A stretch of 63,242 nt of DNA, the filler included, from Folioceros fuciformis (lineage: Eukaryota), in the NCBI GenBank assembly GCA_049999805.1. It is 4 parts of 3 records of this genome, joined end to end, with 100 filler letters (N's around TTAATTAATTAA, not from the genome) between each part and the next. Parts side by side here need not be neighbours in the genome. Positions count along the whole stretch, not along the records: positions 20,441 to 39,365 come from JBNGIO010005965.1; 3 more parts are not named here. One strand, written 5' to 3'. The position numbers and the translations under genes are program-made. A model generated the notes under the pieces. It was given only the letters and a program-made list of their open reading frames with translations, did not search any database and was not told the origin of the DNA. Shown here piece by piece: positions 14,044-61,901 of this stretch. The first letter of the stretch is position 1. The number at the start of each line of letters is the position of its first letter.

Positions 14044-16245
14044 TATTAAGATATATACCCAGCCCTATCTAGATAGGGATTGAGATATGAACAGTTATTA
14101 GATAAATACAGTTATTAGATAACATCTACTGGCTAGGCAGAAACTAACATTGTTGCAGCTTGGCATAAGAAAGATAAGAAGGCCAGAAACATCATCCTTT
14201 CAGCTCTCTATAGGAATATGATGCAACATACTCAAGGGCAATCAACGACACATGCAATATGGAAAGTCTTTCAAGACATGTTTGCAGCTAATGATTCCCA
14301 TGTCCCTTATAAATTGAACATGCATTTTCTATACACTTCGAATGAAGGAAAATGAAATTGTCGAACATCACATACACCGATTTCGCACCTTGCAAGCCAG
14401 GTTAGCAGCTGCTGGAGAGACCCTAACAGAATTGAAAGCAGCTACAATACTTTTAACCTCATTACCTTCAAGCTACCGGACATTTGTTAGCTCACAAGCA
14501 ACCTTACTTCGACAAGCGGGAGCAAACATTACCTTGTCTAAAGTAGTTGGAGCACTATTAGAAGAGGAATCCAGCAGAATAGGGACTGGAAGATCTTTTT
14601 CATCTAACCAGCAACATGTTTTGTACACTGCTTGTGGAACCCTACAGCTGGATCTGTCACACTACACCAAGAACATTTCATTCGTAAGATTTTAACCAAG
14701 TTTAATTTACAAGACATCAATCCTGTTGCCACCCCAGTTGCAACTGGCGTGAAATTATCACTTGAAGACTGTCCAGTTACTGATGTGGACAAGGCATAGA
14801 TGGCAGCTATCCCTTATCGAGAAGTCGTGGGTAGTTTACTCTACCTAGCCGGATGGACTAGGCCCGACATATCACAAGCTACAGGCGTTGTTTCTTGTTT
14901 CCTGTCAAATCCTGGAAAACGCCATTGGGTGGCTGTTAAACGAATCTTACGCTACTTGAAGGGCACTAGACACCATTGTCTCACATATACCAAGGAAAGT
15001 GATTTCACCCTTACCTGTTTTCAGATGCTGATTGGGTTGGCGATGTTGACAACAGGAAATTGATAGCAGCATACTGTACACTCTTATGTGGGTTAGCAAT
15101 CAGTTAGCAAAGCAAAAAGCTCTCCACAATCAGTCTCTCTTCAACGGAGGCAGAATACAGTGCACTTTCCCTCGCAGCAAGAGAAATAACTTGGATTAGG
15201 TAGTTCCTAGAAGGTATCCACATGCAGCAGACCATGCCAACTACTTTGCAGTGTGATAACCAATCAGCCATAGACCTCTTAGCGAATCCTATCTTCCATG
15301 CACGCTCAAACATATCGAAATACAGTTCCATTATATTCGACAAGCAGTCGAGCAGAAGGTGATACAGCTGGCCTATGTGCCCACAGCACAGAATGTGGCA
15401 GACCTGCTTACTAAAGGCCTGTCCAAGATGTTGCATGAATAGCACAGGTTTTTGCTGGGTCTGCATGAGGACAAGCCCAAGCAGTGACATCAACAACAAA
15501 GTTCTTAGGTTACCTTGCTTAGCGTTAGTACAACCAATGAGCCTACACCGCTTATGCCACCAGCAATCCATCACCTCATCTACAGAGCACAACTCGTTTA
15601 GTTAAGAACCTCACATCACCCGTGCAGCTATACCTGGATGAAGCATCACTAGACAGCAAATCAGGTTAGCAGCAAGTCACTGACACGTACCTTTTTAGGC
15701 AGTAGCTGGGTGCACTCAGCTCTGAAGGCGAGAAGGAACTCCACATCTGTCATGGATGTTCTGTCATGGAATTCAGGCAGTTCCCTTTTTCCCTGGCTGT
15801 AGCGCGCGCACCTCTCCCCTCACCTGGGTGCTCTCTAGTTTTCACTGATCTGTCACAGTTGGGTGTGTTATGCGCCAAGTTTTTGGAGGTGTCAGGATTA
15901 GGGGAGCAGGTATAACAGCGAGGATAAGCTCAAATACGTGGACAACAAGCTCCAGGTCTGAGCTCCAGGCCATCGCTCGTCTAGATCAGGCACAGCTGTG
16001 AGACTGTGAGTGGACGGGGTTGATTGCTCAACGTCTCTCCGCTCAAATCCACTAGCTTGGATAGCTCACACTTGGCGTTTTACATTTTCTATTCATATGG
16101 TTCTATTTAGCATTACTCAATATTACCGAGTTAGGTCTGAGAGGGGGTATTAAGATATATTTGTTTAAATATATTTACAGCCCTAACTAGATAGGGATTG
16201 AGATATGAACAGTTATTAGATAAATACTTTTAGGGTTCTTCCACA
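14044..16245 (+). mobile_element. Internally deleted Ty1/copia element (copia-A)
   Basis: Matching short LTR-like repeats start TATTAAGATATAT at 14044 and 16148 and share AGATAGGGATTGAGATATGAACAGTTATTAGATAAATAC. PPT GAGAGGGGG precedes 16148. Gag (MKENEIVEHHIHRF..LLTSLPSSY) runs straight into late RT (PYREVVGSLLYL..TRPDI) and RNase H (SLSSTEAEY, ADLLTK). Right end approximate. Confidence 0.85.
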
Positions 16246-17137
16246 CCAAAAACAGTTACAACACTCTTTTGTTTATAAGACACTTTCTTGACTATAAGGC
16301 ATATACTCTTCATGCATTGTTGTCTCCTCTCAACTTGTGTCTGATCGTGTGCAGGTAGATTTGTTTTATGACCCATCATTGCACTGAGGCGCTGGCCAAC
16401 CGGCGCTCATCAGGTACACGACCGGCAGGGTGTGCTTGCTTTTCACACCGTGTAAAATAGCAAAACACCAATCTACATGCAGGTGAGTTTAGGGTTTTGA
16501 CCTCCAACATAACCTATTCAACCCTTGGGGTTGGAAAATGAGGTTTGAGAGAAAAGGTCAGAATCAAATCAGTGAATGAAATCAAATCAATGAAAGAATT
16601 GGAGGGCAAACCACTGGGTTCAAGAAAGCAATCGAATAGGGTAACACCTTTGAGATGAGTGATAACCTTTGGATACTCTTCGTGTTTTGTACCAACTCGC
16701 ATTGTGGACTCTAGAAAACAGCATGTGAATTAAATCAGGTTTGTCCACAAAAATTGACAAATATTGGATTGAACTGGAGTAGATCAATTGCTATATTAAA
16801 CAATTACATTATTGATAAAAGAATATTACAATAAGAGCACTTGTCAAAGGAGGCTAACTGAACTTAAGTTATTATGAACAGACATAACCTTTCACTAAGG
16901 ACATGACTCTTAATGAAGGGGTATTAAAAATGATAATCATAATAACTCTGTACACACATACTATACATGCTAATATTACTGAACCCTAATAAATCAGCAC
17001 CTATTCTCATCACTCCCACTTGCTGATTATTATGGGTTGGTCAGTCTTCTCCTTTGCGAGTAGCTTGTGGAGACTATGAGTTCAGCTAGGCTTCTTGCTT
17101 GAGCGTGTGTGTTTACTCTGTGTGGCGTAAGCTTCCA

Positions 17138-18471
17138 ATGGAGCAGGACAGTGTGAAGTCAACTCTGTACAGGTTTGCTGCTTTAGTAGCTCTTGTTTAT
17201 GCCCCATGCCATATAGCGGCTAGGCTCATAGGGCATAGGCTCAACTCTTCAAAAAACATGGCGTCTTCAGGGTCTGAGGAAAGCACATCTCCTACAAAGC
17301 GGCGCATCTACCAACGGGATCAACTAGGGCGCTTCGCAGCAGCAACAGCTAGAGCAACTGCCTTTGTGGAAAGCGCAGCACATCAACCTGCACAAACAGC
17401 GAGACAGAGTACAAGAAGAGCAAGCAGCTCAGGGCAACCCCAAGGGAGACCCTGAGGCACCACCAGGGCTGTGCTTCAAGCAAGACGATAGGAACCTGCA
17501 TTAGGGACAACGACAGTGGCGGCGGCTGCGTCTTCTCATCATTCCCACTTGACTTCACGCATCAGGACTAGTCAGCCTACAACGACTGCCCCTCAACCTC
17601 GATCCCGCACAACACCGACTACTGCCATGGGAGGTCTGAGGGGCATGTCACGTGAAGACATCCATTCTCGAGCAACAGTAGAATGGCGCCGCTTCAATCG
17701 TGGTGAGTTTGAGTATGCTACTTCTGATCAACGCCCTCATGTTCCGCCCAGGTTCCCAATTCCTGCAAATGTGATGTCAGAAACAAGAATTGTAACCCCT
17801 AGCAATTGGGAGAAGCCCGGAAGTCCTCTCTGGTACAGGTGCACATCTACTGGACTAGTGATGAAACACATTGAGCTACAGCTATGCTGGGAATACAAAG
17901 ATCACATCATAAGTGTCTATAGTAAGTCTTCACACCAACTTACGTCTATTCCTCTGTACTTAAAACAGTTAGTATAGGCAATGTCTTCACACCAACTTAC
18001 GTCTATTCTTCTGTACTTAAAACAGTTAGTATAGGCAATCTGATTGTTTCCTTTGTGTTTGACCTGGAAAGGTCTTAACTCCTTGTTGACCTGTGTCAAT
18101 TGTCTGTGAATCATACTCCCATTGTCTACCAAATAGGATCTGAAGATAGATTGGAAGAAGAGAACAGCCTCGACATAAAGGAGAGAATTTCTTATTAGGA
18201 GAGGAGGAAAAGGTTTTCTCCTCGCAATGAAGATGAAACTTTCTCTTCAAAGTCTGTGGACCGTGACTCCTGGGATAAATATGATGATTCAACAAGCTCT
18301 GAGAGCAAGAGATCTTTCCAATCTCCACCAGGAAATTCAGGCAATGATGACAGTAATGACTGGGGTTGTAACTCGCTTGGTTGGCTAGGTCTTAGACATG
18401 GTAGTGGGGCTGCCTTCATGGCTCCCCATGCCAAGAACTTTCATGTGCTTTTCGTGAAGTTCCCTTCCTAG
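17138..18471 (+). pseudogene. Antisense accessory gene of copia-B (spliced, 3 in-frame stops)
   Basis: One frame from 17138 to 17921 with stops at 17453 and 17489. Intron 17922-18136 (GTAAGT...AATAG). Exon 2 reads RSEDRLEEE with a stop at 18196 and then continues in frame. Homologous to the ORFs at 24390 and 62109. Confidence 0.8.
17926..18039 (+). repeat. 57-bp tandem duplication inside the predicted intron
   Basis: GTCTTCACACCAACTTACGTCTATTC...TAGTATAGGCAAT occurs twice with 1 mismatch. Confidence 0.95.
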
Positions 18472-19690
18472 GGACTTAGTTAAAATGTCTGCTGGGTTTT
18501 CAGCTGTTGGCACATACTCCAGATCAATCTATCCAGATTTGATCAAGTCACTTATGAAGTGGTATTCAACTTCCACATGTTTGGTTCTAGAGTGAAACAC
18601 TGGATTGTGAGCAAGACTCATTGATCCTTGATTGTCTATTTTTATTGTGCTGCAGGTTGGAAGTGGTAATCCAAGCTCCTTGAACATCAACTTACACCAA
18701 GCAATTTCCTTTGCAGCAGCTGTAAGTGCATGATACTCAGCCTCTGTACTTGATAAAGCCACAGTAGGCTGTTTCTTACTAGACCAGCAGATTGGTCCTC
18801 CAGCTATCCTTACTACATAGCCGAAAACTAACTTTCGTGTATCTATGTCCCCAGCATAATCTGAGTCTGTGAAGACATCTAGTTGCAGAGGTACTCCAGG
18901 TATATTTCTATTCCTTATGCTAATGTTATGAGTGCCTTTTAGATATCTGAAAACTCTTTTAACACATGTCCAGTGTGTTTGGCCTGGATTTTCCAGATAC
19001 TGGGAAAGCACACTCGTAGCATAAGCTACTTCTGGTCTTGTAGTATTTGCAGCATACATAAGTTTTCGTACAGCTTGTCTGTAGGGTACTGATCTCATTT
19101 GATCCTGTTGTGTTTGTGTGTCAAGATACATTGACTTGCTCATTTTCCGTCCACAAGGTAAAGGAGTAGCTGATGGTTTGGCATCCTTCAAACCAAGTTG
19201 TTCAGCATTATTTAATAGGTATAGTGGTTGTGTTAAAGTAATAGTCCTTTTTGGCCTGTCATGCTGAATCAATATACCAAGGCAACTTTGTAGAGCACCT
19301 AGGTGTCTCATCTCAAACTTAGTTGATAACACCTTGTTTATGTCTTTGATGAAAGTAGGACTGTTAAAGGCCAATATGAGATCATCTACATATATAGCCA
19401 GGTAACATACTACAACTTTAGATCTGCAAACATATAAGCTTCCATCTGAGACACATTTAACAAAACCTAGGGATCGCAGTTCTTCATCAAAAACAGCATT
19501 CCACTCAAGGGCAAATTGTTTCAACCCGTACAGGGTTTAATCAGGTGTAAGACATAGTCTTCTTTTCCTTTCACCTCCTGCCCAGGTCGTTGTTGCATGT
19601 AAATTTCAATGTCCAGTTTTCCATGTAAGAAAGCTATCTTTACATCAAACATATCTAACTCATAATCGTAGTGTGCTGCAAGTATAGGGT

Positions 19691-20340: not shown

Positions 20341-20440
20341 NNNNNNNNNNNNNNNNNNNNNNNNNNNNNNNNNNNNNNNNNNNNTTAATTAATTAANNNN
20401 NNNNNNNNNNNNNNNNNNNNNNNNNNNNNNNNNNNNNNNN
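20341..20440. other. Artificial contig linker N44-TTAATTAATTAA-N44
   Basis: Six-frame stop oligomer centred in a 100-nt N spacer; identical at 39366 and 61802. Confidence 0.95.
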
Positions 20441-23400
20441 AAAATGGGAGTCCCGAAAGTTTTTTTCCTCTACAGTAGCCCAGGGAAATTGAGCACATAC
20501 CATCACAGATTGTGCATCTCTTAAAGAGGCCTTGAAGAAGCAGTTCCAACCTGCAAATGCTTCGCGTTTGAGCTGGCAACTGCTTGATAATATAAAGCAG
20601 AAAAGTATGTGGGATAAGTACCATTACCAGATATTTGCCATGCTCTACCTTTAGTGAAGCTGTTATGCATTGTACTTCAATGAGTGAAGTTGACAAACTA
20701 CATCGCTTCATGGTTGGTTAGAAGAAATGGGCTGCTAACAGAATTGAGTTATATAGTCCAATGACCTTGGCAGAGGCCATAATAGCAGCAGATGCTATCC
20801 CAAATACCTTTCATTCTACCACATCCAACTCCTCACGAAGATTTCGAGGTAATACCTGTGGACGGTATATGCAGACTCGGGTTTCTTCTAACAGTGGTGG
20901 CACAGGAACTCCCAACGATAATGAAAGAAGTACAGTTGCAAGAGGCAACTCAAGTGGGAGCTTGTGTGGGAGAAATCGAAGAATGCGTAGGGTGCGCGGA
21001 GCTCAGAGAACTGTGACAATGGGTTCTCGGAAAGGAGTTTTTTTTTCTTGTGGAGAGCCAGGACATTATGCGAATGAATGCCCCAATGCTCAACAAAATT
21101 TGAACGTTGTTCAAGACAACCCACAACCCCAAAGACTCAGGATTACAGAAGTATCCGGATTTGACAATCCCAAGTGACGGGATTGGCCACATGTTGCACA
21201 GGCTACATGTGGTGAGTCTCAAGATGCTGAGGACAGCATTATTCATAGGGCGGGTGGAGAGCTCATGTATATAGAAGGATGTGTGAATCGTGAAGAAGCA
21301 AAGATGTTGCTTGATCTAGCAGCAACACTTAATTTCATTTCTCCTGGCAGAGCAAGTAAGCTTGGTTTGACATTGGTTAGTACTTTAGAGCCATGTACAG
21401 TGAAACAAGCAAAAGGAAAGCTGCAGTTCTTAGGACAGCTGCAAAAAGTGCCTTCGCAGATAGGCAATTGGACAGGAGAAGCAAGCTTCACAATTGTAGA
21501 TATGGATGATCATGAAATCATCTTGGGCTTAGAATGGATGAAGGCCAATAAGGTATGTGTAGACGTGGACTCACACACCATACAAATCTTAGGAGATGAA
21601 AAGCACAAAGTGAGTTGTGCATTTCTTGAGCATCAGCTTGGACACAAGATTGATGAAGTCATCTCTAAGAAAGCTCAAGCGTTGTGTTAGGAATGAAGAG
21701 GAACTTTATATTTTGGTGTTGCAAGGACTAGAAGATGGTCTTGAGATGGAGTCTCAAAAGCAACCAAAGATTCCAAAGGAGATACAAGCTCTCTTATACA
21801 AGTTTAAAGACTTGATGCCTACTGCGTTACCTCCTTTACCTCAGAGGAGAGTTGTAGATCATGAGATTGATCTAAAGCCAAGAAGTGTACCGCCTTCAAG
21901 AGCGCCATACAAATTGTTTCTAGATGAGCTTCAAGAGTTGAAGAGACAAATGTCTAACTTGTTAGCCAAGGGCTATGTTAGAGTCTCGAAATTCCCATTT
22001 GGTGAGTCAGTATTGTTTACGCGTGAGAAGAATGGAGGATTAAGGTTATGCTTGGATTACAGAGCACTCAACCAAATAACAATCAAGAATTCCTATCCAT
22101 TGCCAAGGATGGATGATATGTTTGACAGGTTGAAAGGTGCTAAGTATTTTGCCACACTAGATTTGATGGCTGGTTATTACCAAATTCACATTGCAGAACA
22201 ACATGAATACAAAACTGCTTGTAGGACAAGGTATGGATCTTTTGAATTTCTTGTCATGCCATTTGGACTCACTAACGCACCAGTCACATTTCAGACTCTC
22301 ATAAATACTATATTCAGAGATTTTTTGGATGAGTGTGTTGTGATCTACTTGGATGACATTTTGATATACAGTTCTACTTTAGAGGAGCATGTCCAACACT
22401 TGAGGAAAGTGTTGGAAAGGTTAAGGGCAAATTCCTTGTTCTTAGCTATAACAAAGTGTGACTTTGTTAAGGAAGAGATAGACTTCATTGGATTCATTGT
22501 CTCTGTTGATGCAATCAGAATGGATCCTGATAAGGTAAAAGCTATACAGAGTTGGCTACCGCCAAGCAATGTGCATGAAGTGCCTATGTTTTTGGGATTA
22601 GCTAGCGTGTACAGAAGATTTGTACCGATGTTTGCCAAAATTGCTACCCCATTAACTGATCTCTTGAAGAAGGCAAAGGCTTGGAAGTGGGATGAAAAAT
22701 GTCAAAGGACATTCGAGTTTCTCAAGTTGAAACTCAGCACTACCCCAGTATTAGCAATCTATGATCCAAAGAAAGATATAAAAGTGTATACTGATGCGTC
22801 AGATATAGCTATTGGAGGAGTGCTTATGCAAGAAGGTAGGCCAACAGCTTACGAATCAAGAAAGTTGCATGAACATGAGAGGAAATACCCCACATATGAG
22901 CAAGAGATGACAACCTCAAGATTGTCTCAAGATTTGGAGACACTATCTTCTTGGAAGATCTTTTGTGCTGTACACAGATAATGTAAGTACAAGCTTCTTT
23001 TCTAATCAGCTGCGACTTAATGTAAGACAAGCTAGATGGCAAGATTTCCTAGTGATGTATGATATGGAGATTAAGTATAAGCTAGGGAAGGAGAATCTCG
23101 TGGCAGATGTTCTCAGTCGCAAGCAGGAGTTGAGGTTAATATCTGTTTTTAAGCTAAAGAATCCTAAGCTAGCTGCAACACAGATGGTGATTGAGCCAAG
23201 GGACACTCACACGCAAATTAAGGAGGCTTATCTGCGTGATCCATTAGTGCAAGATTGGATCAATTAAATGGAGCAACCAGGGTCTAAGTTTAAGCTTAGA
23301 AATGGCTTGTTAATGTCCAAGCAAAACAGGATTGTGATTCCTGATTCTCAAGAGTTGAGAAGAAAATTGCTTGCAGAATGTCACAATGTGCCAAGTGCTG

Positions 23401-23921
23401 GTCATCGGGGAATTGACACAACTTATGAGAAGTTGAAGAAGCTGTTTTACTGGCCTGGAATGTACAACCATACTGTAGAGTATGTGAAGTCTTGTGTAGA
23501 CTGTCAGCTGGATAAGGTAGAGCAGACAAATCCACGAGGTTTGTTGCAACCCCTGCCTCTTCCAAGTGGGCCTTGGAAGAGTATATCAATGGATTTTGTT
23601 ATGTCGTTGCCACCCAGTAATGGATACACAGCTATCATGACAGTTGTTGATAGGTTCAGCAAGCAAGCACACTTTATCCCTACGAAGAAGCAAGTGAAGG
23701 CTTCAAAAGTTGCTCAATTGTTTAAGAAGCATATCTATGTGTTACATGGATTACCTATGCAAATTGTGAGTGATAGAGATCCCATATTCCCAGCGGAATT
23801 TTGGCAATAGCTTATGAAGAGCTTGGGAGTGCAACTATGTTTAAGCACAACATATCACCTTGATACAGATGGATCTACATAAAGGGTAAACATAATCCAA
23901 GAGGAATACTTACGACATATG

Positions 23922-24189
23922 TGATGGAAATCATGGGCTAAGCTCTTGAGAAGGAGATTCTTATATGACAATTGATTTAACACAAAATACAAAGTCTATT
24001 TATAGGCAAGGTGGTTAGGAGGTTAGGTGGTTACAACCATAAGTTGTTGTAACCATCAGGTAGTTATAACTACCCTAACCTCTAACTACCTAGAGCAATT
24101 AACCAATAACTACTTAATGCCCAGGTAAATAATAATGTTTAAGTTAGATACCCTAGTGAATAGTGCCCTAACCCTAATATATTTCATTA
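23922..24189 (-). repeat. 3' LTR of copia-C
   Basis: Direct repeat of 31430-31698; reads TAATG...ATCA on the minus strand. Confidence 0.95.
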
Positions 24190-24389
24190 CTCCCACTCAC
24201 TATGAACGTAGGTGAGAGAACTACCTTTAAAATGAGGCCTAAAATGTCAATAGACTCCCACTAAATAACAAGCTATCAGCCTAAGAAAAATAATAAAAAA
24301 CTTAAGCTATGAAAAGGAAGATGGAAATAAGTTTAAGAGCCTAAATAAGTTTTCAAGCCAACTTAAACTAATCAAAAAAAGTTTTTTTA

Positions 24390-25859
24390 ATGAAAATACG
24401 GCTTGGTACAGGGTACGCCCCGTCCACGTTCGTATCGTGGGGGGTACTCTCGGCAGTTATTGCAGCACCGGTCTTCTTCCGTAAAATGCGGAGGCCGAGG
24501 ACGGGACCTCCAAGTTGCTGCAGGATGGTAGGCCGCGACGCAAGGAGCACACACGCGCAGCGCCGTGCCATGGGAGTGCGCCAGAAGGCGCGCCCGCATC
24601 ATGCGAGCGCCCAGCGCCGCGACGCACGCGGTAAGTTTGCCGCGGGTCAGCGAGCCGGGGCGCTGGTGGATGCGCAATCTGCCCTTCGTAAGCAATCCTT
24701 AGGTGCTCCTGGTGTCGGGGAGCAACAGAAACACAGACGTCTTGCCACCTTCCCGGTGAGTGCTAAAGGTCAGTATCCTGCATCCAGACCAAAATAGCTA
24801 TTAAATCGTGATGCCTGTGTTGCCTTAATCTTGTTCTTCTCCTGTGAAGGTAAACGGGAGTTGAGGGGACATAGCCGATCCTCCACTGCCTCCCGTAGCA
24901 GAAGTGAGGACACTGAGAGAGCAAAACAGCCACCACATCTAGCTTCCTTATTCAAGCCTCCACCGATTGTCTGCATGTCGACGGATTTGGAAGAAATGGA
25001 GGTGTCCAGCCGTGCTGCGCATAAACTTGCAAAATCACCAATTGTTGAGCAGCTTGTTGCAGGGGAGCCTATTGCTAAAGGAAGTCCCTCATGGAGGGCG
25101 CGTGCAGTGCGTCGAGAAGTGTTTCTTCATCCTGAGCATACTGAAAAACTTCAAAGCTGCGCCTCAAGTAAGTAGCTCATGTCTGAAATTTCAGTCTGCA
25201 ACATAAAATTGGACTGACATTTCCTTGTGGTTGATGGGATATGAGGAAATCCTTAAGGAAGTAAGGATTGCGGATGGGAGGAAAGTGGACCAAAATAGGG
25301 AAAAGGAAATAGGAAAAGAAAAAACACGTAAGAGTGTTTAGGAAAACAAAAAAAACTCTTACTATACTATCCTATTTATGTGGTTTGGTTTATTAACCTA
25401 TAACTAAGTTGTATTTCCCTTATTTTAGGCTTAGATAAAAGTATTGGGACTAGAGGTGTAAAGGTGGCAGTCCCGGTGAAGCCTAGCTGTGGAAAAAGGA
25501 ACACATATGAGATCCCGGATTCTCTATTGCCTAGAGCTGATCTAGCCAAAAATGTGTATTTAATATGTCTTGGGGATATGGAAAATGCAGAAACCCCGGA
25601 GGAGTATACATGCCAACAAACAGGCATTCATATGGTGTGGCTAGGTTGTAAGCCATGTGAGGAATATGAGGGGCATACAAAACACATCTATTGTGAGTGC
25701 CCTAAGTGCCACAATTAAATTGCATTTAATTAGTACAAAATCTACTTATATGTACTAGGTTCATTTTGGAAACTCAGCGAGGAAGATAGAGAATACTATG
25801 AGGACTGTGTAGAAATAGAGGGAGAACTTAATGAATTGGACATAATACTTGACCCTTAG
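24390..25859 (+). CDS. Antisense accessory gene of copia-C, predicted 4 exons (24390-24768, 24850-25167, 25429-25692, 25759-25859), ~293-353 aa depending on the ATG
   Basis: Three phase-1 GT-AG introns (AAG|GTCAGT, CAA|GTAAGT, ATT|GTGAGT) join the exons into one stop-free frame. AATAAA at 25893. Motifs RRDARGKFA and YTCQQTGIHM..CEEYEGH..Y|CSFWKLSEE are shared with the other two copies. Confidence 0.75.
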
Positions 25860-25908
25860 GAGATCAAGGCACTTTTTTTTTTTTTAATGCCCAATAAAGT
25901 TTTTCTTC

Positions 25909-28900
25909 TTAATCAACCAAGGTTAGGGTGATTTCACATACACTATGCCTAAACTTCTCATGTGTTTGTTTTGTAAATCTTTTCCTAAAGACTTAGTTAG
26001 GATATCAGCTGGGTTCTCATGGGTTTAGACATAACTTATGTTTATTGTCTTACTTTCTAGCATTTCTCAAATGTAGTGATATTCAATGGCTATATGCTTG
26101 GTCCGAGAGTGAAAAACAGGGTTTCTAGCTAAGGCTATGGCTCCCTAGTTATCACTAAATAGAGGAGTGGGATCATTCTGAGGATGACCAAGTTCACTTA
26201 AAGCTAACCTGCTCCAGACAATATCCTTGGAAACTGAGGTCAGTACTCTATACTTGAACTCAATACTTGAGAGGGCAATGGTTGGTTGTTTCTTACTTGA
26301 CCATGATATGGGTTCTCCTCCCAGTAGTAATATGTAACCAGATATGGACTTGCGGGTATCAGGATCGCCAGCATAATCAGCATTAGCAAATGCTGCTAGA
26401 ATTAACTTCGGGATGCCGGGTCGATGCTTAAACATTAATCCAGTGTGCATAGTGCCTTTGAGATATCTGAATATTCGTTTGACAGGTACCCAATGTTCTC
26501 GTCCAGGGTTTTCCAGAAATTGGGAACATGCACTAACTTCAAAGAAGATGTCTGGTCTTGTGAAATTACTTAAATAAATCAAGGTCCCCACGGCATGTCT
26601 ATAAGGGACTGCTGACATTTCTTATTTTTCCGCATCTGTTTGAGGGCTCATAGCTTTAGTGAGCCGAATGCCACTTGCAAATGGTGTAGTGGCTGGCTTA
26701 GCATCTTCAAGTCCAAACTTGGCTAAGCTTTCTTTTATGTACTTAGTTTGTACTAAGATTAAAGTTTTGTTGCCTCTATCCCTTATTATATTTACCCCAA
26801 GGGCATAAGTCATCTCTCCTAAATCGGTCATTTCAAAATGACTTCTTAACCATGCCTTGGTTTCAGCTAAGAGAGAGAGTGAAGATGAGGCCATAAATAA
26901 GTCGTCAACATAGAGCAGGAGATATAAAATATCACTACCTGATTTCAATATGTACATGCTAGCATCTGCCTTACTTTGTATGAAGCCTCAGTTAACTAGC
27001 TTGACATGTATGACGACGTTCCGTTCTTTGCCTGATTGCTTCAGGCCATAAAGGCACTTAATGAGTTTGCATACCCAATCTTCCTTTCCCTTGACCTCAT
27101 AGCCTTCTGGCTATTTCATATAAATTTCTTCTTGTAGACGCCCATGCAGGTATGCTGTTTTGACGTCCATCATATGAAGGTATAGGTCATATTGTGCGGT
27201 TAAGGCGAAGATCATTCTTAGGGAGGCAAACTTGGCAACTGGTGCATAGGTGGCCCAGGGTATGTAATCTAAACCAGGTATCTGGGTAAACCCTCTTGCC
27301 ACTAAGCGTGCCTTATATCTTTCTATGGAACCATCACCCTTTCTTTTTATTTTGAATACCCACTTGCTAGTCACTATCTTTCTTCCCTTAGGTGGTTTCA
27401 CTAATTCCCATGTAGAATTCTTAAGTAATGAGTCGTACTCAGAATCTACAGCTACTTTCCACAAGTCTTTCTCAGGAGAGGAAAATGCTTGTTTTAAGGT
27501 TTGTGGCTCTTCGGGATCAACTGTCGCTTTGTATACAGCTTGATGATAAGGTGAAAAGGGAGAAACTAGATCATCTAGGGTAGCAAGGTATCCAAGGGGT
27601 GGTTCCTTCCATCCTGCAGGTCCTGGAATGTTAGGTCTAGTTCTCAGGTTGTACCTCAAAGCAGGTTGTTGTTGTAGAATATTTTCTTCAATGTCGACTT
27701 CTTCATGAGCTGGCTCTTCTGTTGGTGAGTTAGGCTTATCTTTAGGCTTGTCTTTGAGCTCGTCCTCATGCACAATTCATTCAATCTCGGGGATAATAAA
27801 GTTGTCCTTGAGATGATAGTCATCCTCCAAGTGGAGAGGTTCTTGTCCGTCGGGATCTGGTGTAGTAGGTCGACATGGAATATGTTCTAACAGCTCCTCC
27901 TCCTCCTGCAGAGTAGGTTCAACAAAAGGAACGCTCGTAGCAGGGAGTGGATGAAGGGTGACAAATTCATCATCATCAAAAGATGAGGACTCCGTGTGCA
28001 CTCCGAAGGGAACAGCGAGAGTGGCAGGAGCTCCCACTGAAGGGGAAAGTAAAGAGGACTCATGAAAAGTCACGCTCCTGGCATATGTAATTTTCCTAGT
28101 GGACGGGTGGAATAACTTGTATCCTTTGATGCCTTCCGTATAGCCAATAAAAGTGTACTTGGCTGCCTTATAGTCTAACTTCTTGCGTTGTACTTTGGGT
28201 ATAAAAACATACGCAGGTGACCCAAAAATCCGAAGATGTTCAATGGAGGGCTTTCTATCAGTGAGAGCTTCATAAGGTGTTATACTTGGGACTGCGGAGG
28301 TGGGCAGTCGATTAATAAGATACGTTGCTGTCATAATGGCCTCGGCCCAATAACTCTTGGATAGTTGGGCTTGAGTAAGCAAGCAACTAGTGATCTCTTG
28401 TAGGCGTAAATTCTTATTCTCTGCGACGCCATTTTGTTGAGGAGTGTGTACCACAGTGAGTTGCTGAGCTATACCTTCAACTCGGCAAAAATCAGCAAAA
28501 TTATTGGATGTGAACTCGCCACCATTGTCGGAACACAATGTTTTGAGTTTCTTATCCGTAAGTCTCTGTGCCCACATCATGTAATCCTTGAAAAATTGAA
28601 AGGCCTGGCTTTTGTGTTTCAGGATATAGGTGAGCACAAAACGAGAGTAATCATCAATGAAGGTTAAAAAGTATCTGCAACCACTAAAGGAAGGGGCAGA
28701 AATGGGGCCACAAATGTCTGTATGAACCAACTCAAGAGGTGTTGTGGCCCGCTGTGGAGATGGGTTAAGAAAAGGAGCTTGGTGCCGTTTTGTGACAACA
28801 CAGGCTTCACACCAAGACAGGGGTTCTATCTTGGAGAGGGAGGGTGATCTATAAAAATTTCCCTTAGACATTTGGATCAGCTTTTGGCTATTATGATGAC

Positions 28901-31322
28901 CTAAACGGCAGTGCCAAAGCATAGTATGGGAGGAGGTGGTAGAATTTTGGGAAGCTACATTGATGAGATGTGAGGGACCCACTTGGACTGAGAGTTTATA
29001 TAGTCCATCTTCTAGTGTACTTGAGCAGATGGTGTGCGGCTTACTTGATAGATAAGAAAGAAGACAAATATCTGCTTGGAGGATAATTTGCATGCTATGT
29101 TCTGAACACAAACTAGCAGTTGACACTAGGTTTTTACACATGGATAGTACATGGAGGACATGAGAGAGAGAGAGAACTTGGCCTGAAGAGAATCTGAGAA
29201 CAATTGAACCTACACCAGAGATTGTGAGGTTATGATCATCGCCCACTAGGATAGTTTGATGTCCTGTAGCTGGCAAGTAAGACTCAAAAGAGTTTATGTT
29301 GTGACAGATATGAGATGTAGCACCACTGTCTAAATATCAATATTGGTTGGATGGCTTGGATGATGCCAAGCATACAGTGAGTGCTGCTGGTGTTGCTGAG
29401 GTCTTTTTCTTCACAGCAACATTTGCTCCAGGGTAGCCTCCTTCTTAGGCTCGCCGTTCTTCTTCTTGTAGCAGTCCTTCTCCATATGATTCGGTATCCT
29501 ACACCAATTACAAATAACTCCCGCCTTCTTCTTACCTCTTGCAGGTGTGGAAGAAGCGCATTCTCCATCGAGAGAATTAGGATTTGGCCTAGGAGAAAAG
29601 GGTCTACCGCGGCCTCGGCCACGCCCTCTTCCTCTGCCTCGTCCTGTAAACATCACCTACTGTCTGATAGATCGCGGATTCTCTTGTCGACGACTGGCAT
29701 TCTCCTGTATAATGGCTCCAATTAATTCATCAACGCTGATATCCAGCGTATTGGAGCCAGTTGCATTCATTTCTTTCTGTGCGGCTCTAAGGACAGCATT
29801 TTGTGTTGTCACGAAGGACCTATAGGAGGGTGGTAAGGAGGCAAGGAGAGCAATAAAAGCTGCTTTCTCGGTAAGTTTCTCGTCAAATGATGCTTCGAAA
29901 TTATTCTTGGCAACACGGAAAGCAGTGATATGATGATCAATGGANNNNNNNNNNNNNNNNNNNNNNNNNNNNNNNNNNNNNNNNNNNNNNNNNNNNNNNN
30001 NNNNNNNNNNNNNNNNNNNNNNNNNNNNNNNNNNNNNNNNNNNNGTGATATGATGATCAATGGAGTCATTCTCCTTCATTCTCAGGTTATGGAGATGACG
30101 GGTAGCGGTCAATAAGCTCATCCCGTCTTTAGAAGCATATAATTGAGCTAGACGCTCCCACGTATTATGAGATGTGCCGGCTCCTAAAACTTGGCGTACC
30201 ATGAATTCGGTTAGACCTTGAAGAAGGATATCTCGGGCCCTTAAGTCCTTAGCATCCCATTCTTCTTGTTTATCTTCGTCCTAAAGGTGTTTGGTCTCGG
30301 TTCCTCAATATTCCATAGGCCATGACTACGTAACACTCCTTGTGCACGATCTTGCCATACATCATATCCTCTTCCATTGAATCTATCTTTCTCCTTAAAG
30401 TTATGTGCTTGAATCAAAGTGGTGGACTTTGATTCATAATTAGCCAACTTCTTCTTCTCCTTCTCTTTGAACTTTTCAAGTTCATCTTGTCATTTGGCTC
30501 GCTCTTCTTCGAGCCATAAAGCCTTTTGGGCTTCAATATATCTTGCCTTCTCTTCTGCAATTTCTTTCTCGACGGAGAAGTCTACTCGGTCAGACATTGC
30601 ATGTGTGTTTATTGATGCAGATTACGCCGTCCTTGACACGACGACTTCCCGCTTGTATTAGCAGCAAAGAAGTGTGAAAAATTATAGCATTTCTTCAAAG
30701 GGGAATCATCTGCATGGTCATCAAAATTTGCAGGCTTACAAGAAAGTGAGTTGGATCTATTGGCTCTTGGGAGGACTGGTTCTTGAAGATCGTCGGTGAT
30801 TGAATGTAATTGATCAGTGAGATAATTCAATCTATCATTAGTAGCAGTATGAAGAATTCTGGCTTCTGGTCCAATGGAATCAAGAGATTGCTGCAGATGA
30901 TATGGATTAGGAGTGAAGAACTTTGGCCTATGCTTCATATACTTAAAAATAGTTGACTCAATGGCGCTAGATTGCAAAAGGTCAAAGGAAGTTAGGAGAT
31001 CTTTGCGAGCGTGATTTATGTTACCTACTCTATCTCCAAACTTAGAGATAAGGGCTTCTATGAGACGACATACTTGTGCTTCAACAACATCAATTTCAAG
31101 GGCATTGAAATCAAAGTTTTCCTCTTGAATTGCAAAGAGTCTGGGTTGTTGTTGTCTCTTCTTCTTCGAAGCCTTGATCTTCCTCCTATACTCTTGCTTG
31201 CTGGGATTGATGAAATCCATAGGAGGGGGCAAACAAGAGGTGAATGCACAAAAAGTGCATCCTTAAAGTATTGTGCTCCACTCAAGTTGGTTACTATTCA
31301 AAACGAGGTCTCCATGCTCCAT
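25909..31322 (-). pseudogene. copia-C gag-pol, disrupted
   Basis: Gag knuckle CNWCRIPNHMEKDC, GAG-pre-integrase WHCRLGH, integrase (HTDICGP, SDNGGEF), RT (YKARLVARGF, YVDD) and RNase H, split by several in-frame stops (e.g. 29657, 27777, 27111, 26622, 26145). Confidence 0.9.
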
Positions 31323-31429
31323 GATCTTCGCTGGAAAAGCTAAAAGTGCAAATGTATTGAGGAGAGAAGAGCCATGAGCAAAAGCAAGCAAGAGTGCTCA
31401 AGCACCAAGAGCAGTGTGCTCTAATACCA

Positions 31430-31698
31430 TGATGAAAATCATGGGCTAAGCTCTTGAGAAGGAGATTCTTATATGACAATTGATTTAACACAAAATACAA
31501 AGCGTATTTATAGGCAAGGTGGTTAGGAGGTTAGATGGTTACAACCATGAGTAGTTGTAACCATCAAGTAGTTATAACTACCCTAACCACTAACTACCTA
31601 GAGCAATTAACTAATAACTACTTAATGCCCTAGGTAGATAATAATGTTTAAGTTAGGTACCCTAGTGAATAGTGCCCTAACCCTAATATATTTCATTA
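31430..31698 (-). repeat. 5' LTR of copia-C
   Basis: Direct repeat of 23922-24189, adjacent to the PBS. Confidence 0.95.
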
Positions 31699-33172
31699 AG
31701 ATGGACCAGAGAAACTGGAGTAATCATCTTGAGGATGCAGAGTTTTATTATAACAATATTGTACATAGCTCCATAGGCTATACACCTTTTCAGATGACAG
31801 GTAACGAAGCAATGGACACAACTTCCATGTTGAATGTTGGAGTGTTTGAGACAGCAGCAAGAGAACCACATAAATTTATTAAGCAATTGAGGGCCAGACA
31901 AATTTTGGCCAAAGCTCAAGACAGACAAAAGAAGTTTGCTAATAGGCACAGGAAAGAGGCAGAATTTCAAGTGGGTGACAAGGTTTGGGTAAAGTTGAAG
32001 CACTTCCCAATACCTCAAGGACTGTCCCCAAAGTTAAGGCCTAAGTATGGAGGTCCTTTTGTAGTTTTGAAGCACATTGGAAATGTGGCTTACAAACTAC
32101 AACTGCCTAATTGGATCTTCTCTCATGATGTGTTTCATGTCTCTTTGCTGAAACCATTTGTGATTTCGAAAGAGAATGAAGACATGAACAAGAAAGACTA
32201 TGTTATCCTGGTTCAATATAACCATAGTTTGCAGGAGATTGTTGAATTCCTAGCAGAAAGAGAAGTGCTTTCTGTGCATGGTAATGTTCTAGAGTATCTA
32301 GTAAGGCTTCATGATTTTACAGATCCTGTCTGGGTTTCACTTCAAGATGTGCAACAAGGATCATGGATGATCTCACGTTATACTACAAGTCATTGAGGAC
32401 AATGACATCTTCCTAGTGGGGGAGAGAGTAATGGCACAAGTGAAATAAGGTGAAAGTAAAAAGGTGAAAGCTAAATCTAGAGCTGTCTTGATGAAGAAGC
32501 AAGTATGCTTCTTGTTGCCTTTGGAAACAAGATTTGTGTTCCAGGCAAAACCTCCTAAGAAGGATGGAGTTGTAATGACCACTAGTATTCTGATATGAGT
32601 AGTGTGTATCATTCCCAGCTTTAGCAATGGCTTAGCTGTGGAGTATAAATAGGCTAGTGTTAAGGTCTTAAGGATATACACTAATACACGGATACACAAA
32701 GAGACAAAGAGAGAGGCAGACAATGAGAAGTCTAGCCTTGAGATATAGTTGTGGAGAGCTTGAAGAGCAAGCTTTTCAGATTGAGACTAGAGCAGTAGCT
32801 AGTGGGGAGTAGATCACCAGACTCTTTTGTAAGTATATGAAATAAATAGCAACACCTAGAGGCGGTGGTCTGCGAGTCGTCNNNNNNNNNNNNNNNNNNN
32901 NNNNNNNNNNNNNNNNNNNNNNNNNNNNNNNNNNNNNNNNNNNNNNNNNNNNNNNNNNNNNNNNNNNNNNNNNNNNNNNNNCTTCCTTTTACGCTGCGTA
33001 AGGAAGGGGTGGTACTCTGCCTCCACTTTCGATTAAGATGGGCAAAGACAAAAAATAAGAGAGATCTACCCAGGTGCACCACCTAACGTCTTTGAAATCC
33101 TGTGAACAGCTTCAACTGTTCATAATCTGAGATTTTTTTCACGAAAAAAATCAGACTTTTCAGAAACAACCA

Positions 33173-36100
33173 TCAAGTAACGTCCGGGCGGACACGTTTC
33201 CTCACGCCTTGATCAGGAGACTTCAAGTCCGGGGACACCTTGGTAATTTCACGGGCCTCTACGAGACCTTTCTCTAGGGGCGCTGTTGCAGTATTAATTA
33301 CAACTGCATCATCTGCTTCTGGAGGAAAGCGTTTGCCTGGTACTATGTTCCGCCCTCTGAGAAAGGAAGGCTGTGTCGAGGCATCCATGTCCACAGGATC
33401 CCCTTCTGGAACTTGATTACCGGCTTCACCCAAGGGAACCTTCACGGTAATCTGCCATTGGCATGACACAGCATTTTAGACCCATTCACTCGCTCCGCAA
33501 ACACGGCTGACAACCACGGGAAAGATTAGGGATGATTACCGGCAACTCTGATTGAGGCACTGCATGCCCGACATCCTCATCCTTCTTCACGCCTTTCTGT
33601 TTTAATCTCTCTTGGTTCTTACCATGAAATTTCGCTCGAACTTCCGTAGGCAACAACTCAGGTGGAATGACCGATTCTATACCATGATCTGTGAACTGCT
33701 ATCCCGGGTTTTCTTAGCGGGACTACCCTCCAGACACTGCTATCATAATTCTTCCACATATCGCAACTCAGAAGACATTTGTAGCATAACCCAAGACACA
33801 GGAGAAAACGTACCCTGGAAAACCCTTCAAGATCTTGACGGCAAGAAAACCTCAACCCTTTCCAGCAGTAGACCTTTTTCAGCAAAGTGTCGATGCATGT
33901 GAGAAGAAAACTTCTCACAAAACTTGTGCTAAACGACAATAATAACACCCTGATGATTTACTTTAAATTACAAGACCGTAACCGGGCAAGAACCGATGTG
34001 CACTCACCCGATTCTGCTTCCGGCTGTACTCTGGTTCAATGCCTGCTGCAGGATCGAGCTACCAAGACATCCCGCGCAGAAATAAATTGGGTGTGTACTA
34101 ACAAATCAAGTTTTGAAAAAAAAGAAAAAGAAAAAAGAAACACACGGACAAGTTCCCATAACTTACTTCTTCGGCAAGAGGTTTCCAGTATTCAGAAACA
34201 GGAGGAACTTTTACCCGTTGAATATCTGTCAGTGCATTCTGCCAACACCTCAAACAACGTCAGAGGGCATGGTTTGCTTAGGCACAAGAAACAGCTGTTT
34301 ATGAATGATTTAAAGGCAATAGGTTGACCTATTACCGGGTTCTGTTCAGACCACTTCCAAAGTTGCGAAAGCTCCTTATTCCCAAGCCTCCATCTAGGCC
34401 TGCTGATGCGATACCAAACCTTTCAGCCTTCTTCCAAGAAAGACCTCGCTACCCAACATGCAACCAGGCTGTATATTCAGGAATGGCAAAGTCTGCCTGG
34501 TAGTACTACACAACTTCTCTGAAAGTTCCAACCATACCGCCTCTTGCTAGCATCTGCTGGTGCTTTTTGATCTGGAGTCACTTTCTCGAAAGCAGGACAC
34601 CCATCCCTCTTCCACCAAACCTTCAACGAATGCCACACTGTCCCGCTCAGTCACAGTCAATGCGCTTCGAAATGAAACCAAGCTGTGCAATCTCAGATAT
34701 GCTGTTGGATACACACCCCAAATATTGTGTTTGAGAGACTTACCCAATTCCGTTCGCGTTCGAGAATATGTTCCACACTGGCGAGAAACTCTGTTCCCTT
34801 GGCTGGTGTACTCTCTAGTAACTTCCTCACTCGAGCTTCATGTGCTTTCACTTCGTTCCTCTGAGCAGGCAACCACCACTTACAAACAACTTTGTTTGGG
34901 AAACCTTAAGTCTCTCGGAGAACAAAGCCAAGACTTCTGTATTTAAAGAGAAACCAAGCATACCAAACTTTCTTTAGCACTCTCCTTTTCAGTTTTGCCC
35001 GGGGACTGTACAGCCAAAACATCAAACCATTGGTTACAACTTGGAAGGCTTACAACGTGCTCAAGAACTATGATCGTCCTCGTGGCCTATCCCGAACCAC
35101 CCTATTTGCCAACTGGATGGAAGCACATGAATTTCACCATGCAAGTACTCATGCATGCAAATCGTGAACAAACACACTTGCCAAGAGTTGAAAGGGACCT
35201 GCAGGAAGTCAAAGATGATGAGACACTGCACAAGGACGTGCCGCCTGAAACCTGGGTCTTTGAGCTGTTAGAGACAATGGGAAGTAAGCTAAGAGATGAG
35301 TTAAGGGTAAACTAACATGGAGCTAGTAAGTAAGCAACTCAGAATGAAAGATCAAACCATGGTGGGGAGCCTGACTACTGGCCTCTAAGCTCATAAGATT
35401 ACTGCTGGTGAGGTACTTGATATTGAAGGTCGCATCATCTGCTGCGTTTAAGTGGCTGGAGCTTTCTTCATTGTCCACAAGTGGAAGAGTTTCAAAAGTG
35501 TCCAGGACAGTCTGACATGTTACGAAGAATGTAACTGTCTCAGTTGTTGCAAACATTTTGCTGCCATCCACGACCTTAAGAGGCAAAAAAACCAACTAGT
35601 TCCGGTATCACTTCTCACAGCCCTAAAGGTGCAATAACCAACTCAGGCCAGCTGTGCATTCCTTCCTATCCTTTCCCATCTCGTGACAGGCGAGCTTTCT
35701 AAGTAGCTGAAAATAAGAAACGAGGGAGGCCCCCGGTGGACCCAAATACCAACAGATTGGCAAACAAGCTTCTTATCCTACAGCCAAAATCAAGGCTTCA
35801 GTTTCTGGACACGTGACAGAGGAGGAATTAACTCACAGTAAGACTTGATGAAAAAGCCAGCCACCTTGTCGGATGTTGAATCAAAGGAGCCGGGTTGGAG
35901 AAGTGCTCCTGCAACCTTAAAGAACTCGCTTGAAGTCATGCCCAGAATTACAGAAACCACTGGATTGCCTTTCGACAACAAACCTAGAACTCACCTGAAG
36001 GCTCCAGAATGTCTTGTAGAACTTCAAATCTACGAGGAACCCTGGAGAAGAGTGCAGACAGGTGATACGATAGTCCCATGCTGGGGCATTAAATCCAACT

Positions 36101-39365: not shown

Positions 39366-39465
39366 NNNNNNNNNNNNNNNNNNNNNNNNNNNNNNNNNNN
39401 NNNNNNNNNTTAATTAATTAANNNNNNNNNNNNNNNNNNNNNNNNNNNNNNNNNNNNNNNNNNNN
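39366..39465. other. Artificial contig linker N44-TTAATTAATTAA-N44
   Basis: Same structure as at 20341. Confidence 0.95.
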
Positions 39466-44122: not shown

Positions 44123-44635
44123 TCTGCCTCAGACAGAATTACTAGCCACAGCGCTGCTCTGCGCTGAGCTATCAGCCCAACCCTTGGCGCCCGTGTCAGA
44201 CTTTTGTGCGATTGGGCAAGAGCCGTGAAAGCAATTTTGGCGTCAGCTCAACGCACGCTCTACGATCGAAGCTCTTCCGTCTCTGGTACCACCTCTGGAC
44301 ACGACGCCAATCGACCCATAACCCTTTGAAATATATATCAAATTTATAAAACGAAAAATCTAGTTACCGCCTGTATATGAATATGGATATGGCGGGCCTA
44401 CTGGCCTGGACATGAGATGGGCAAGGAGGGCCGCAAGTGTGAGAGAATTTGAATGAAGCAGGCGGATGGACTGCAACACATCCTCCTTGCAACCACTTGG
44501 TTATGCTGATATTTGGGTGCGTGTGATAGTAGGTGCACATGACACGCTCGCCCACAATTCCAAGCATATTTGGACTCCAGCTCCGGCTGCCATCCTCAGG
44601 AAGTGAGGTTCGGAGTTCTGCTTGCTCGGACACAA

Positions 44636-61801: not shown

Positions 61802-61901
61802 NNNNNNNNNNNNNNNNNNNNNNNNNNNNNNNNNNNNNNNNNNNNTTAATTAATTAANNNNNNNNNNNNNNNNNNNNNNNNNNNNNNNNNNNNNNNNNNN
61901 N
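61802..61901. other. Artificial contig linker N44-TTAATTAATTAA-N44
   Basis: Same structure as at 20341. Confidence 0.95.

Follow-up and report, generated by a model that had tools for sequence, protein, structure and literature searches.

A conserved coding gene is very probably present on the antisense strand of three Ty1/copia elements in a 63,242-nt stretch of the Folioceros fuciformis genome (assembly GCA_049999805.1), which was analysed here as a whole and is called the window. Each of the three elements, copia-B, copia-C and copia-D, carries its copy between the end of pol and the polypurine tract (PPT). We conclude that this is a gene because the copies are homologous, their conservation is specific to one frame, that frame bears a coding signature, splice signals are shared among the copies, and one contig junction was found in a public sequencing run. 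What is new about this antisense accessory gene is that it belongs to Ty1/copia, that an intron of conserved position splits it, and that no relatives of the encoded protein family were detected. The product may be a nucleic-acid- or chromatin-binding regulator acting in trans, either on expression of its own element or on host silencing, a proposal that we draw from analogy and hold with less than even confidence. Taken as a single statement in which the gene carries the greater weight, gene and regulatory role together are likely. The window consists of four contigs of one assembly that were joined artificially, and adjacency across a linker (e.g. copia-B beside a gypsy element) is not genomic; the three elements lie on separate contigs (B up to 20340, C at 20441-39365, D from 61902).

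Homology and coding signature of the antisense gene

Copia-B, -C and -D are minus-strand elements, and in all three the coding region lies on the plus strand, opposite to gag-pol, between the pol stop codon and the PPT and 3' long terminal repeat (LTR). The order is identical in each (pol stop, opposite-strand gene, PPT, LTR), and the gene is found in 3/3 window elements having this type of PPT/LTR junction. The spacer from pol stop to PPT measures 1360 nt (B), 1721 nt (C) and 1161 nt (D), as anticipated by an earlier reading made from the sequence alone (the sequence-only reading), which gave 1.2-1.7 kb. The peptides quoted in that reading were located in plus-strand frames of B, C and D at the positions that it gave, among them the three versions of a basic motif (motif 1), QRDQLGRFA (B), RRDARGKFA (C) and RRDALGRFA (D), and a pair of core segments from B and C in which a recount by hand again found 10/29 residues identical. 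The regular expression [RKQ]D..G[RK]F, when applied to all six frames of the 63 kb window, gave only three matches, all in these open reading frames (ORFs).

Protein alignments, in which in-frame stops were read as X, joined B and D most clearly (BLASTP E=6e-15, 59/205 identical), with a local score (z=23.5) that was reached by 0/1000 shuffles. The core of C matched that of B (E=3e-5; z=8.3; 0/1000 shuffles reached the score), and a collinear match of the two copies at motif 1 had E=0.034. The N-terminus of C matched that of D (E=0.002; z=3.4; 4/1000 shuffles reached the score). Three points place copy C in the family: its core matches that of B, its N-terminus matches that of D, and it has position and gene structure in common with both.

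The similarity resides in the protein and not in the DNA, in agreement with the sequence-only reading. When the B and D spacers were compared in all six frames, the plus-strand gene frame gave E=3.6e-15, and the next best was a minus-strand pair at 3.8e-4. With blastn, just 51 nt of B and D aligned (67% identity), and DNA similarity among the three regions was confined to stretches of 25-64 nt with 67-76% identity. Among the residues identical between B and D, 51/68 are written with different codons, and nucleotide identity by codon position is 0.44 at the first, 0.54 at the second and 0.29 at the third. Third codon positions are thus saturated, the pattern of long purifying selection on the plus frame as judged from these alignments. 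The frame of the gene holds 0-2 in-frame stops per exon vs 1-13 in the other five frames. A tblastn search with the exon peptides did not find a further copy of the gene in the window.

Exon-intron structure of the three copies

The sequence-only reading had treated the antisense ORFs as continuous, which proved incorrect; on the sequence evidence they are discontinuous and split by GT..AG introns. One intron is at the same position in all three copies. Its donors are A|GTAAGT (B, 17922), T|GTGAGT (C, 25693) and A|GTAAGC (D, 62752), each in phase 1 immediately after a conserved Tyr, and AG|G acceptors 215 nt (B), 66 nt (C) and 138 nt (D) downstream continue the frame with S..[RK]L[SE]EE, which all three have in common. 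This post-intron motif reads SEDRLEEE in B, SFWKLSEE in C and SAQRLSEE in D, and is followed by a short charged tail and a stop. If the intron is read through unspliced, the tails of the three copies are unrelated and end at stops after 8-36 codons. The GC content is 32-42% in the introns, 43-66% in the main coding exons and 38-48% in the short last exons.

Copy C has two further candidate introns that are specific to it. Exon 1 (24390-24768) is an open frame with in-frame ATGs at 24390 and 24486; it contains a hydrophobic N-terminal segment and RRDARGKFA, and its end is set by the contig junction described below. Intron 1 (24769-24849, 81 nt, GT..AG, phase 1) is likewise defined by that junction. 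Exon 2 (24850-25167), which lies within the same contig, encodes a variable linker rich in Ser/Arg/Pro/Glu, and has no stop in frame vs 2-9 in the other five frames. A predicted intron 2 (25168-25428, 261 nt, GTAAGT...TTTTAG, phase 1) was placed from splice signals and GC content, having 34% GC and several in-frame stops. Exon 3 (25429-25692), recognised by homology to the B core and by its stop-free frame, encodes the conserved C-terminal core ending ...EYEGHTKHIY. Intron 3 (25693-25758, 66 nt, GTGAGT..AG, phase 1) is the conserved one, with donor and acceptor shared with B and D, and exon 4 (25759-25859) encodes an acidic tail (SFWKLSEEDRE...) up to the stop TAG at 25857-25859. An AATAAA occurs at 25893, 34 nt past the stop of the gene. 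With its three introns removed, copy C reads as 353 codons from the ATG at 24390 to the TAG at 25857-25859 without a stop.

In copy B, exon 1 (17138-17921; ATGs at 17138 and 17258) is interrupted by the stops TGA 17453-17455 and TAG 17489-17491, one of which falls within the conserved GRPxGTT motif. The intron (17922-18136, 215 nt) is at the conserved position in phase 1, and exon 2 (18137-18198), identified by its acceptor and the shared motif, encodes SEDRLEEENSLDIKERISY and then stops. The end of B was previously put at 18471; it is most likely at 18198, and the open frame up to 18471 appears to be an antisense shadow of the pol C-terminus. The B intron also holds a recent 57-nt tandem duplication (17926-18039; 2.0 copies, 98% match). 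Copy D resembles B in having an exon 1 (62109-62751; ATGs at 62109 and 62214) with an in-frame TGA (62655-62657) that aligns with a Trp of B, an intron at the conserved position in phase 1 (62752-62889, 138 nt), and an exon 2 (62890-62960), likewise identified by its acceptor and the shared motif, that encodes SAQRLSEEWRLIKKKIKRSHED before the stop TGA.

A contig from a public sequencing run skips intron 1 of copy C

In a public run designated X1, which holds 0.13 of the sampled words and provides evidence for copy C only, a contig of 983 nt (depth 23) without mismatches to copy C covers 24501-24765 and resumes at 24847-25564. The joint is listed as GT..AG with the cut moved by +3, which gives a plus-strand junction at 24768/24850 that skips 81 nt in frame. 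The skipped segment, a multiple of three in length, holds the one stop (TAG 24795-24797) that interrupts the frame here. Since five letters fit on either side, the joint can be placed in six ways, and by our reckoning about 2% of arbitrary deletions would give GT..AG ends in one of these. We take the joint to result from splicing of a plus-strand transcript, present in the run either as such or as a DNA copy of it. The contig runs through 25168-25428, and intron 2 is therefore a prediction only. The 5' edge of the contig at 24501 is downstream of both candidate ATGs. X1 gave no cover over 25830-29944, where C pol is located, and no conclusion is drawn from this gap.

The elements that carry the gene

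Copia-B, -C and -D are strongly diverged from one another; a tblastn comparison of B with C pol gave 50% identity in RNase H (158 aa) and 35% in reverse transcriptase (RT; 121 aa). Copia-C is a complete element of about 7.8 kb with both LTRs. Its 3' LTR (23922-24189, 268 bp, minus strand) is a direct repeat, about 96% identical to the 5' LTR (31430-31698, 269 bp, minus strand), which was delimited by alignment to it, and the two are flanked by ATATG/AGATG, a likely target-site duplication. The PPT lies at 24190-24201 on the minus strand (plus-strand reading CTCCCACTCACT). Next to the 5' LTR is the sequence TGGTATTAGAGC, a putative primer-binding site (PBS) of the initiator tRNA-Met type. The internal region with gag and pol (25923-31429, minus strand; pol stop 25923-25925) matches Pfam gag_pre-integrs, rve, SH3_retrovirus and RVT_2, with integrase (gag_pre-integrs, rve and SH3_retrovirus; 27780-29336) upstream of RVT_2 (26625-27776) on the minus strand. 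Membership in copia follows from this domain order with an RVT_2-type RT, together with the LTRs, target-site duplication and PPT of element C. From the protease region to the end of pol, 1138 codons are in a single frame with 7 premature stops and no frameshift; the decay of C pol consists of point nonsense changes only. Copia-C is inserted in the integrase of a plus-strand Ty3/gypsy element, whose integrase halves are at 23268-23807 and 31638-32393. The split gypsy element itself occupies 20722-24121 and 31699-32393 and has matches to RVT_1, RNase H, Integrase_H2C2, rve and SH3_Tf2-1.

Copia-B is truncated by the contig end at 20340 and retains part of RT, RNase H and the C-terminal tail of pol (18385-19682, minus strand; Pfam RVT_2, tblastn vs C pol). 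Copia-D is represented in the window by only its last ~40 pol codons (PTQDNPADILTKSL...; 63122-63242, minus strand; stop 63122-63124, the remainder being beyond the window) and ~47 nt of 3' LTR. The pol tail ...NPADILTKSL... is shared by B, C and D, and is the sole pol evidence for D. Of the terminal features, B and D show only the PPT and the edge of the 3' LTR within the window. The junction motif CTCCCACT(T/C)(G/A)CT, the PPT on the plus strand beside the LTR end, is common to B, C and D, being found at 17013-17024 in B and 61949-61960 in D, and this PPT/LTR junction is the sole conserved block in an alignment of the three regions upstream of the gene.

A fourth copia fragment (14360-15480, plus strand) was also observed; its RNase H is 57% identical over 63 aa and 44% over 81 aa to that of C, about as close as B, and its pol tail reads ...QNVADLLTKGL.... 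Neither a homologue of the antisense gene nor a CTCCCAC-type PPT was detected in the 1.3 kb downstream of this fragment.

Features and relatives of the predicted protein

The product, as modelled, is a basic protein of 237-353 aa (pI 9.4-10.3). The frames of all three copies are open to an ATG located 96-120 nt upstream of the Met that precedes a Ser/Asp-rich start, and these upstream ATGs are the start coordinates in the sequence-only reading. Each N-terminal extension, which belongs to the product only if translation begins at the first ATG, has a hydrophobic 15-mer (Kyte-Doolittle mean 1.9-2.9). The stretches of B and D are weakly alike (RFAALVALVY vs RCAALIFLVF, z=3.1, 24/2000 shuffles), those of C and D are not (971/2000 shuffles), and hydropathy analysis gave no second hydrophobic segment in the protein. 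Motif 1, with the consensus RRDxxG[RK]FA, has Arg-rich surroundings. B and D have a second basic motif, GRPxGTT(K/R)AVLxxR(K/R), of which C carries a diverged form. It is followed by a variable linker (50-135 residues, with much Ser/Thr/Pro/Glu) and then by a C-terminal core of about 60 aa (P.P.N...ET..VT....SP.WY.C..TG..M......C.EY..H...Y), and the short charged tail begins with S..[RK]L[SE]EE after the conserved intron. The Cys and His residues of the core were considered as a zinc site, which was rejected when their pattern was seen not to be kept in D. RRDxxGRFA has some likeness to the ...GRF end of the NF-YA and CCT DNA-binding motifs, and GRP to an AT-hook core; neither relationship is claimed, as Pfam gave no support.

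The sequence-only reading recognised no domain family in these proteins, and the same result was obtained with Pfam, PDB sequences and protein databases. Pfam gave no family at E<=10 with any of the three read-through proteins and none at E<=0.01 with exons 1 and 2 of C; the same search of the read-through proteins and the two C exons gave no match to PF04195 (Transposase_28, TRP28). The best match among PDB sequences (E=1.2) was to a basic loop of a serotonin receptor and was taken as chance. A word-indexed search of 5.8 billion proteins with residues 1-182 of D (lengths 136-436 aa) produced 152 candidates, none with E<=0.01, and a profile of B, D and two C exons had 0 matches at E<=0.001 among 1.84 billion representatives (HMMER). 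The C core gave 365 pattern matches in metagenome contigs, none of which was confirmed, and viral contigs queried with the B core and D exon 1 yielded no match.

Metagenomic copia loci with RNase H 38-49% identical to that of C were searched as well, and the gene was found in 0/80 (tblastn best E=0.28, hmmsearch best E=1.9). Thirty-nine of these 80 loci have at least 1200 nt after pol, and an antisense ORF of at least 150 codons occurs in 3/39. The longest of the three, a very basic ORF of 273 codons in locus L041, was rejected as an internal accessory gene because it sits just outside the 3' LTR. The polyprotein of the L041 element (L041:833-6451) is intact, with 1423 aa, and the LTRs, each of ~590 bp, are at about 90-675 and 5073-5661.

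Comparison with known antisense genes

In the sources consulted, the antisense ORFs described between pol and the 3' LTR, called aORF-3R or eORF-3'R, all belong to Ty3/gypsy elements: maize Grande (gene23), rice RIRE2, Silene Retand (with a TRP28 domain) and 15 bean families, among them pvRetro13 with its ORF2 (PMC7264820, PMC4093653, PMC11963269). Grande gene23 has its own promoter and a nuclear protein product (PMC7264820), and a DNA-binding or regulatory role is suspected for antisense ORFs of the Tat clade, with Grande gene23 and Retand TRP28 as instances (PMC7264820, PMC11963269). According to the sequence-only reading, most descriptions of 3' antisense ORFs concern gypsy Tat/Retand/Grande elements and the env-like ORFs of Sireviruses are sense-strand, and both statements agree with the sources (PMC7264820, PMC4093653, PMC11963269, PMC6317226). 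The gene described here is like the Tat-clade ORFs in its place between pol and the 3' LTR, its opposite strand, its apparent occurrence across related families, its lack of clear homologues and its possible DNA-binding or regulatory role. It differs in host superfamily and spacer length, which are Ty3/gypsy and 2.9-6.6 kb for the Tat-clade ORFs but Ty1/copia and 1.2-1.7 kb here; unlike Tat-clade proteins, it has no match to TRP28 (PF04195) or SMC, and identity with the TRP28 protein was rejected because no Pfam PF04195 match was found. It is also split by introns, one at a conserved position, whereas the word 'intron' occurs 0 times in PMC11963269. PMC7264820 urges that spliced antisense transcripts be looked at.

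Within copia, a bean survey found 63/65 families without an extra ORF, the other two having sense env-like ORFs (PMC4093653). Neumann 2019 recorded 582 copia elements, in 45 similarity groups, with extra ORFs of 250 codons or more; the main text singles out only the sense ORF of SIRE, and orientation by lineage is set out in figures and supplements (PMC6317226). There, an eORF is defined as uninterrupted, at least 250 codons long and outside the polyprotein (PMC6317226). Within the 1.5 kb below pol, plus-strand ORFs run without interruption for at most 161 (B), 125 (C) and 241 (D) codons, and the split gene therefore fails the survey criterion of at least 250 codons. A study of transposon expression in moss set aside antisense assemblies (PMC7466625). 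A literature search at the level of main text turned up no copia element with an antisense coding gene that is conserved or spliced; a match to an already described copia antisense ORF, which would have spoken against the sequence-only reading, did not appear within that scope.

The env-like ORF of SIRE (eORF-3'F) is similarly an extra, fast-evolving copia ORF between pol and the 3' LTR (PMC6317226, PMC4093653). Unlike the present gene it is sense-oriented, and its two examples from bean are in ~10 kb elements with 1.7-kb LTRs, whereas C is ~7.8 kb with 268-bp LTRs. Identity with the SIRE env-like ORF was rejected because the conserved frame is antisense, the sense frames reaching at best 3.8e-4 vs 3.6e-15. 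Antisense transcription within Ty1/copia-type elements is known from yeast Ty1 RTL, Arabidopsis AtRE1 and apple Mdoryco1-1 (PMC7264820, PMC12786077); Ty1 RTL is described as a regulatory RNA and for the other two only antisense promoters are reported, whereas here a protein frame is conserved.

A further parallel in overall design is outside plants. HTLV-1 HBZ is a regulatory protein of 206 aa from a spliced antisense gene whose expression need not depend on the sense genes (PMC3185765). HBZ and HTLV-2 APH-2 share with the present gene, as modelled, the antisense position at the 3' end of a reverse-transcribing element, splicing, and a small basic product (PMC3185765). HBZ differs in starting in the 3' LTR and in being a bZIP protein, whereas no bZIP or other domain was detected here. 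The likeness is one of design by analogy and not homology.

A model for the antisense gene and alternatives to it

In the model that we favour, the antisense gene would be transcribed toward pol and away from the 3' LTR to give a spliced transcript. Transcription would start between the 3' LTR and the ATG; counted inward from the PPT, the start codon would be at ~115-200 nt if the first ATG is used and at ~235-285 nt if the second is. No TATA[AT]A was found between the PPT and the ATG, and no conserved upstream DNA was seen in B, C and D beyond the PPT/LTR junction. The transcript, convergent with pol, would probably terminate around the AATAAA at 25893 and so not quite reach the pol stop (25923-25925). 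Introns antisense to the genomic RNA of a retroelement persist through reverse transcription, and those of the present gene would survive retrotransposition because they are antisense to the RNA of the element that is reverse-transcribed. The basic motifs, disordered linker and small C-terminal domain accord with a factor that binds nucleic acid or chromatin. Such a protein would act in trans, as proposed for Grande gene23 and Retand TRP28 and as is known for HTLV-1 HBZ. The intact gene of copy C inside a broken element fits action in trans, though not significantly so. An effect at the RNA level may coexist, the mRNA being complementary to the 3' part of the genomic RNA. A more far-reaching version, in which this would be the first intron-bearing, independently expressed accessory gene of Ty1/copia and a clade-defining protein family lacking known relatives and under selection across deeply diverged elements, with HBZ-like action in trans on copia expression or host silencing and expression persisting in a copy whose pol is dead, is in our judgement rather unlikely.

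Several observations weigh against the model. The designation of X1 as 'RNA?' is a guess. The X1 contig that lacks intron 1 keeps the 261-nt predicted intron 2 unspliced, and with these 261 nt retained the product of copy C ends at residue 235, ahead of the core; the conserved intron 3 is outside all listed pieces of the contig. The spliced models of B (281 codons) and D (237 codons) contain two in-frame stops and one, respectively. The contrast of the intact C gene with its broken pol is not significant, ~2.2 stops being expected in 353 codons (P(0) ~0.11). Homology of the proteins in all three copies, as proposed in the sequence-only reading, held for B-D, the B-C core and the D-C N-terminus; taken alone, the D-C core (z=-0.2, 573/1000 shuffles) and the B-C N-terminus (z=1.6, 80/1000 shuffles) were not significant. 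The family was sampled as three copies from one assembly. The earlier proposal of a lineage-wide, selected accessory protein is borne out as to selection by saturated third positions, one conserved frame and the shared intron, and its breadth beyond three copies and the roles suggested for it (anti-silencing, targeting or trans-regulation) are the parts that did not gain support.

The weak D-C core and B-C N-terminus, along with the low-complexity linkers, are what could be expected if unrelated spacers resembled each other by chance or composition. This reading is so improbable that we regard it as effectively refuted on the alignments, given that 0/1000 shuffles reached the scores of B-D (z=23.5) and of the B-C core (z=8.3), that the motifs are collinear, that position, orientation and intron phase are identical, and that motif 1 occurs in just three places in 63 kb. 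The in-frame stops of B and D and the absence of an assignable function would also suit a passenger, i.e. a fragment of a host gene or mobile element that was captured in reverse and is decaying without serving the element, and gene capture by LTR elements has been named as a possible origin of such ORFs (PMC7264820). We consider a passenger unlikely: no host homologue was found among 1.84 billion representatives, and protein, frame and intron position were kept even though pol is just 35-50% identical between B and C and third positions are saturated. That these were kept despite such deep divergence argues for long purifying selection while the elements spread.

It could also be argued that the antisense RNA is the functional product, acting as dsRNA or siRNA with the 3' 1.2-1.7 kb or by transcriptional interference, and that the ORF is of little import. 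The transcript would be fully complementary to the 3' part of the element RNA and convergent with pol, the sole contig seen retains a segment that truncates the ORF, and regulatory antisense RNAs of Ty1 and dsRNA-based control have been discussed (PMC7264820, PMC12786077). An RNA product would, however, leave unexplained the amino-acid conservation in one frame with saturated third positions and the frame-preserving splice sites in three copies, and we give this reading only a slight probability, noting that the two roles are not exclusive. A membrane-anchored or secreted product, nearer to an env-like or movement factor, would account for the upstream ATG and the hydrophobic stretch of 15-20 residues in all three copies, which is weakly alike in B and D, and for the linker rich in Ser/Thr/Pro. 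The choice of ATG is left undecided by the X1 contig, which begins at 24501, the stretches of C and D are not alike, there is no second hydrophobic segment, and outside this stretch the protein is strongly basic and has Arg clusters; such a product is improbable. An antisense gene whose product may bind nucleic acid or chromatin is the reading that we retain.

Antisense accessory genes of plant LTR elements are otherwise known almost only from the Tat/Retand branch of gypsy, and if the present gene is confirmed, the same design arose independently in the other superfamily. Its conserved intron is one that only an antisense gene could keep through reverse transcription. The gene is small (~240-350 aa), and an intact copy in a broken element offers material for the study of such proteins. 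Filters on ORF length and masking of transposons hide split accessory genes; if the gene is real, others like it are perhaps common in poorly surveyed land-plant lineages and have been missed because of the demand for 250 codons, masking before gene calling and the discarding of antisense assemblies.

Other features of the window

The linkers between contigs (20341-20440, 39366-39465 and 61802-61901) are 100 nt each and consist of 44 N, TTAATTAATTAA and 44 N, with stops in six frames. On the third contig, Pfam identified host genes (42321-47137, 49381-49887, 55952-57461), including an Rrn7/TAF1B-like gene (minus strand) and a PPR gene with an E motif (plus strand, 865-codon open frame); a cytochrome P450 exon (plus strand) and a malectin-like receptor kinase ectodomain (minus strand) were also identified there. 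The E-type PPR protein and the malectin-like kinase point to a land plant as the source. An acidic 150-aa ORF at 61350-61799 (minus strand) without a Pfam match ends in ...VEITRFFKPF at the contig end, and may resemble the C-terminus of pogo/Tigger-type transposases. A minus-strand ORF at 51587-52438 with repeats ...ESQKQPKIPKEIQ... resembles a segment of the gypsy polyprotein near 21.8 kb, and overlaps a family of 100-nt direct repeats that has three members, a reference copy and two others with 61% and 99% identity to it.

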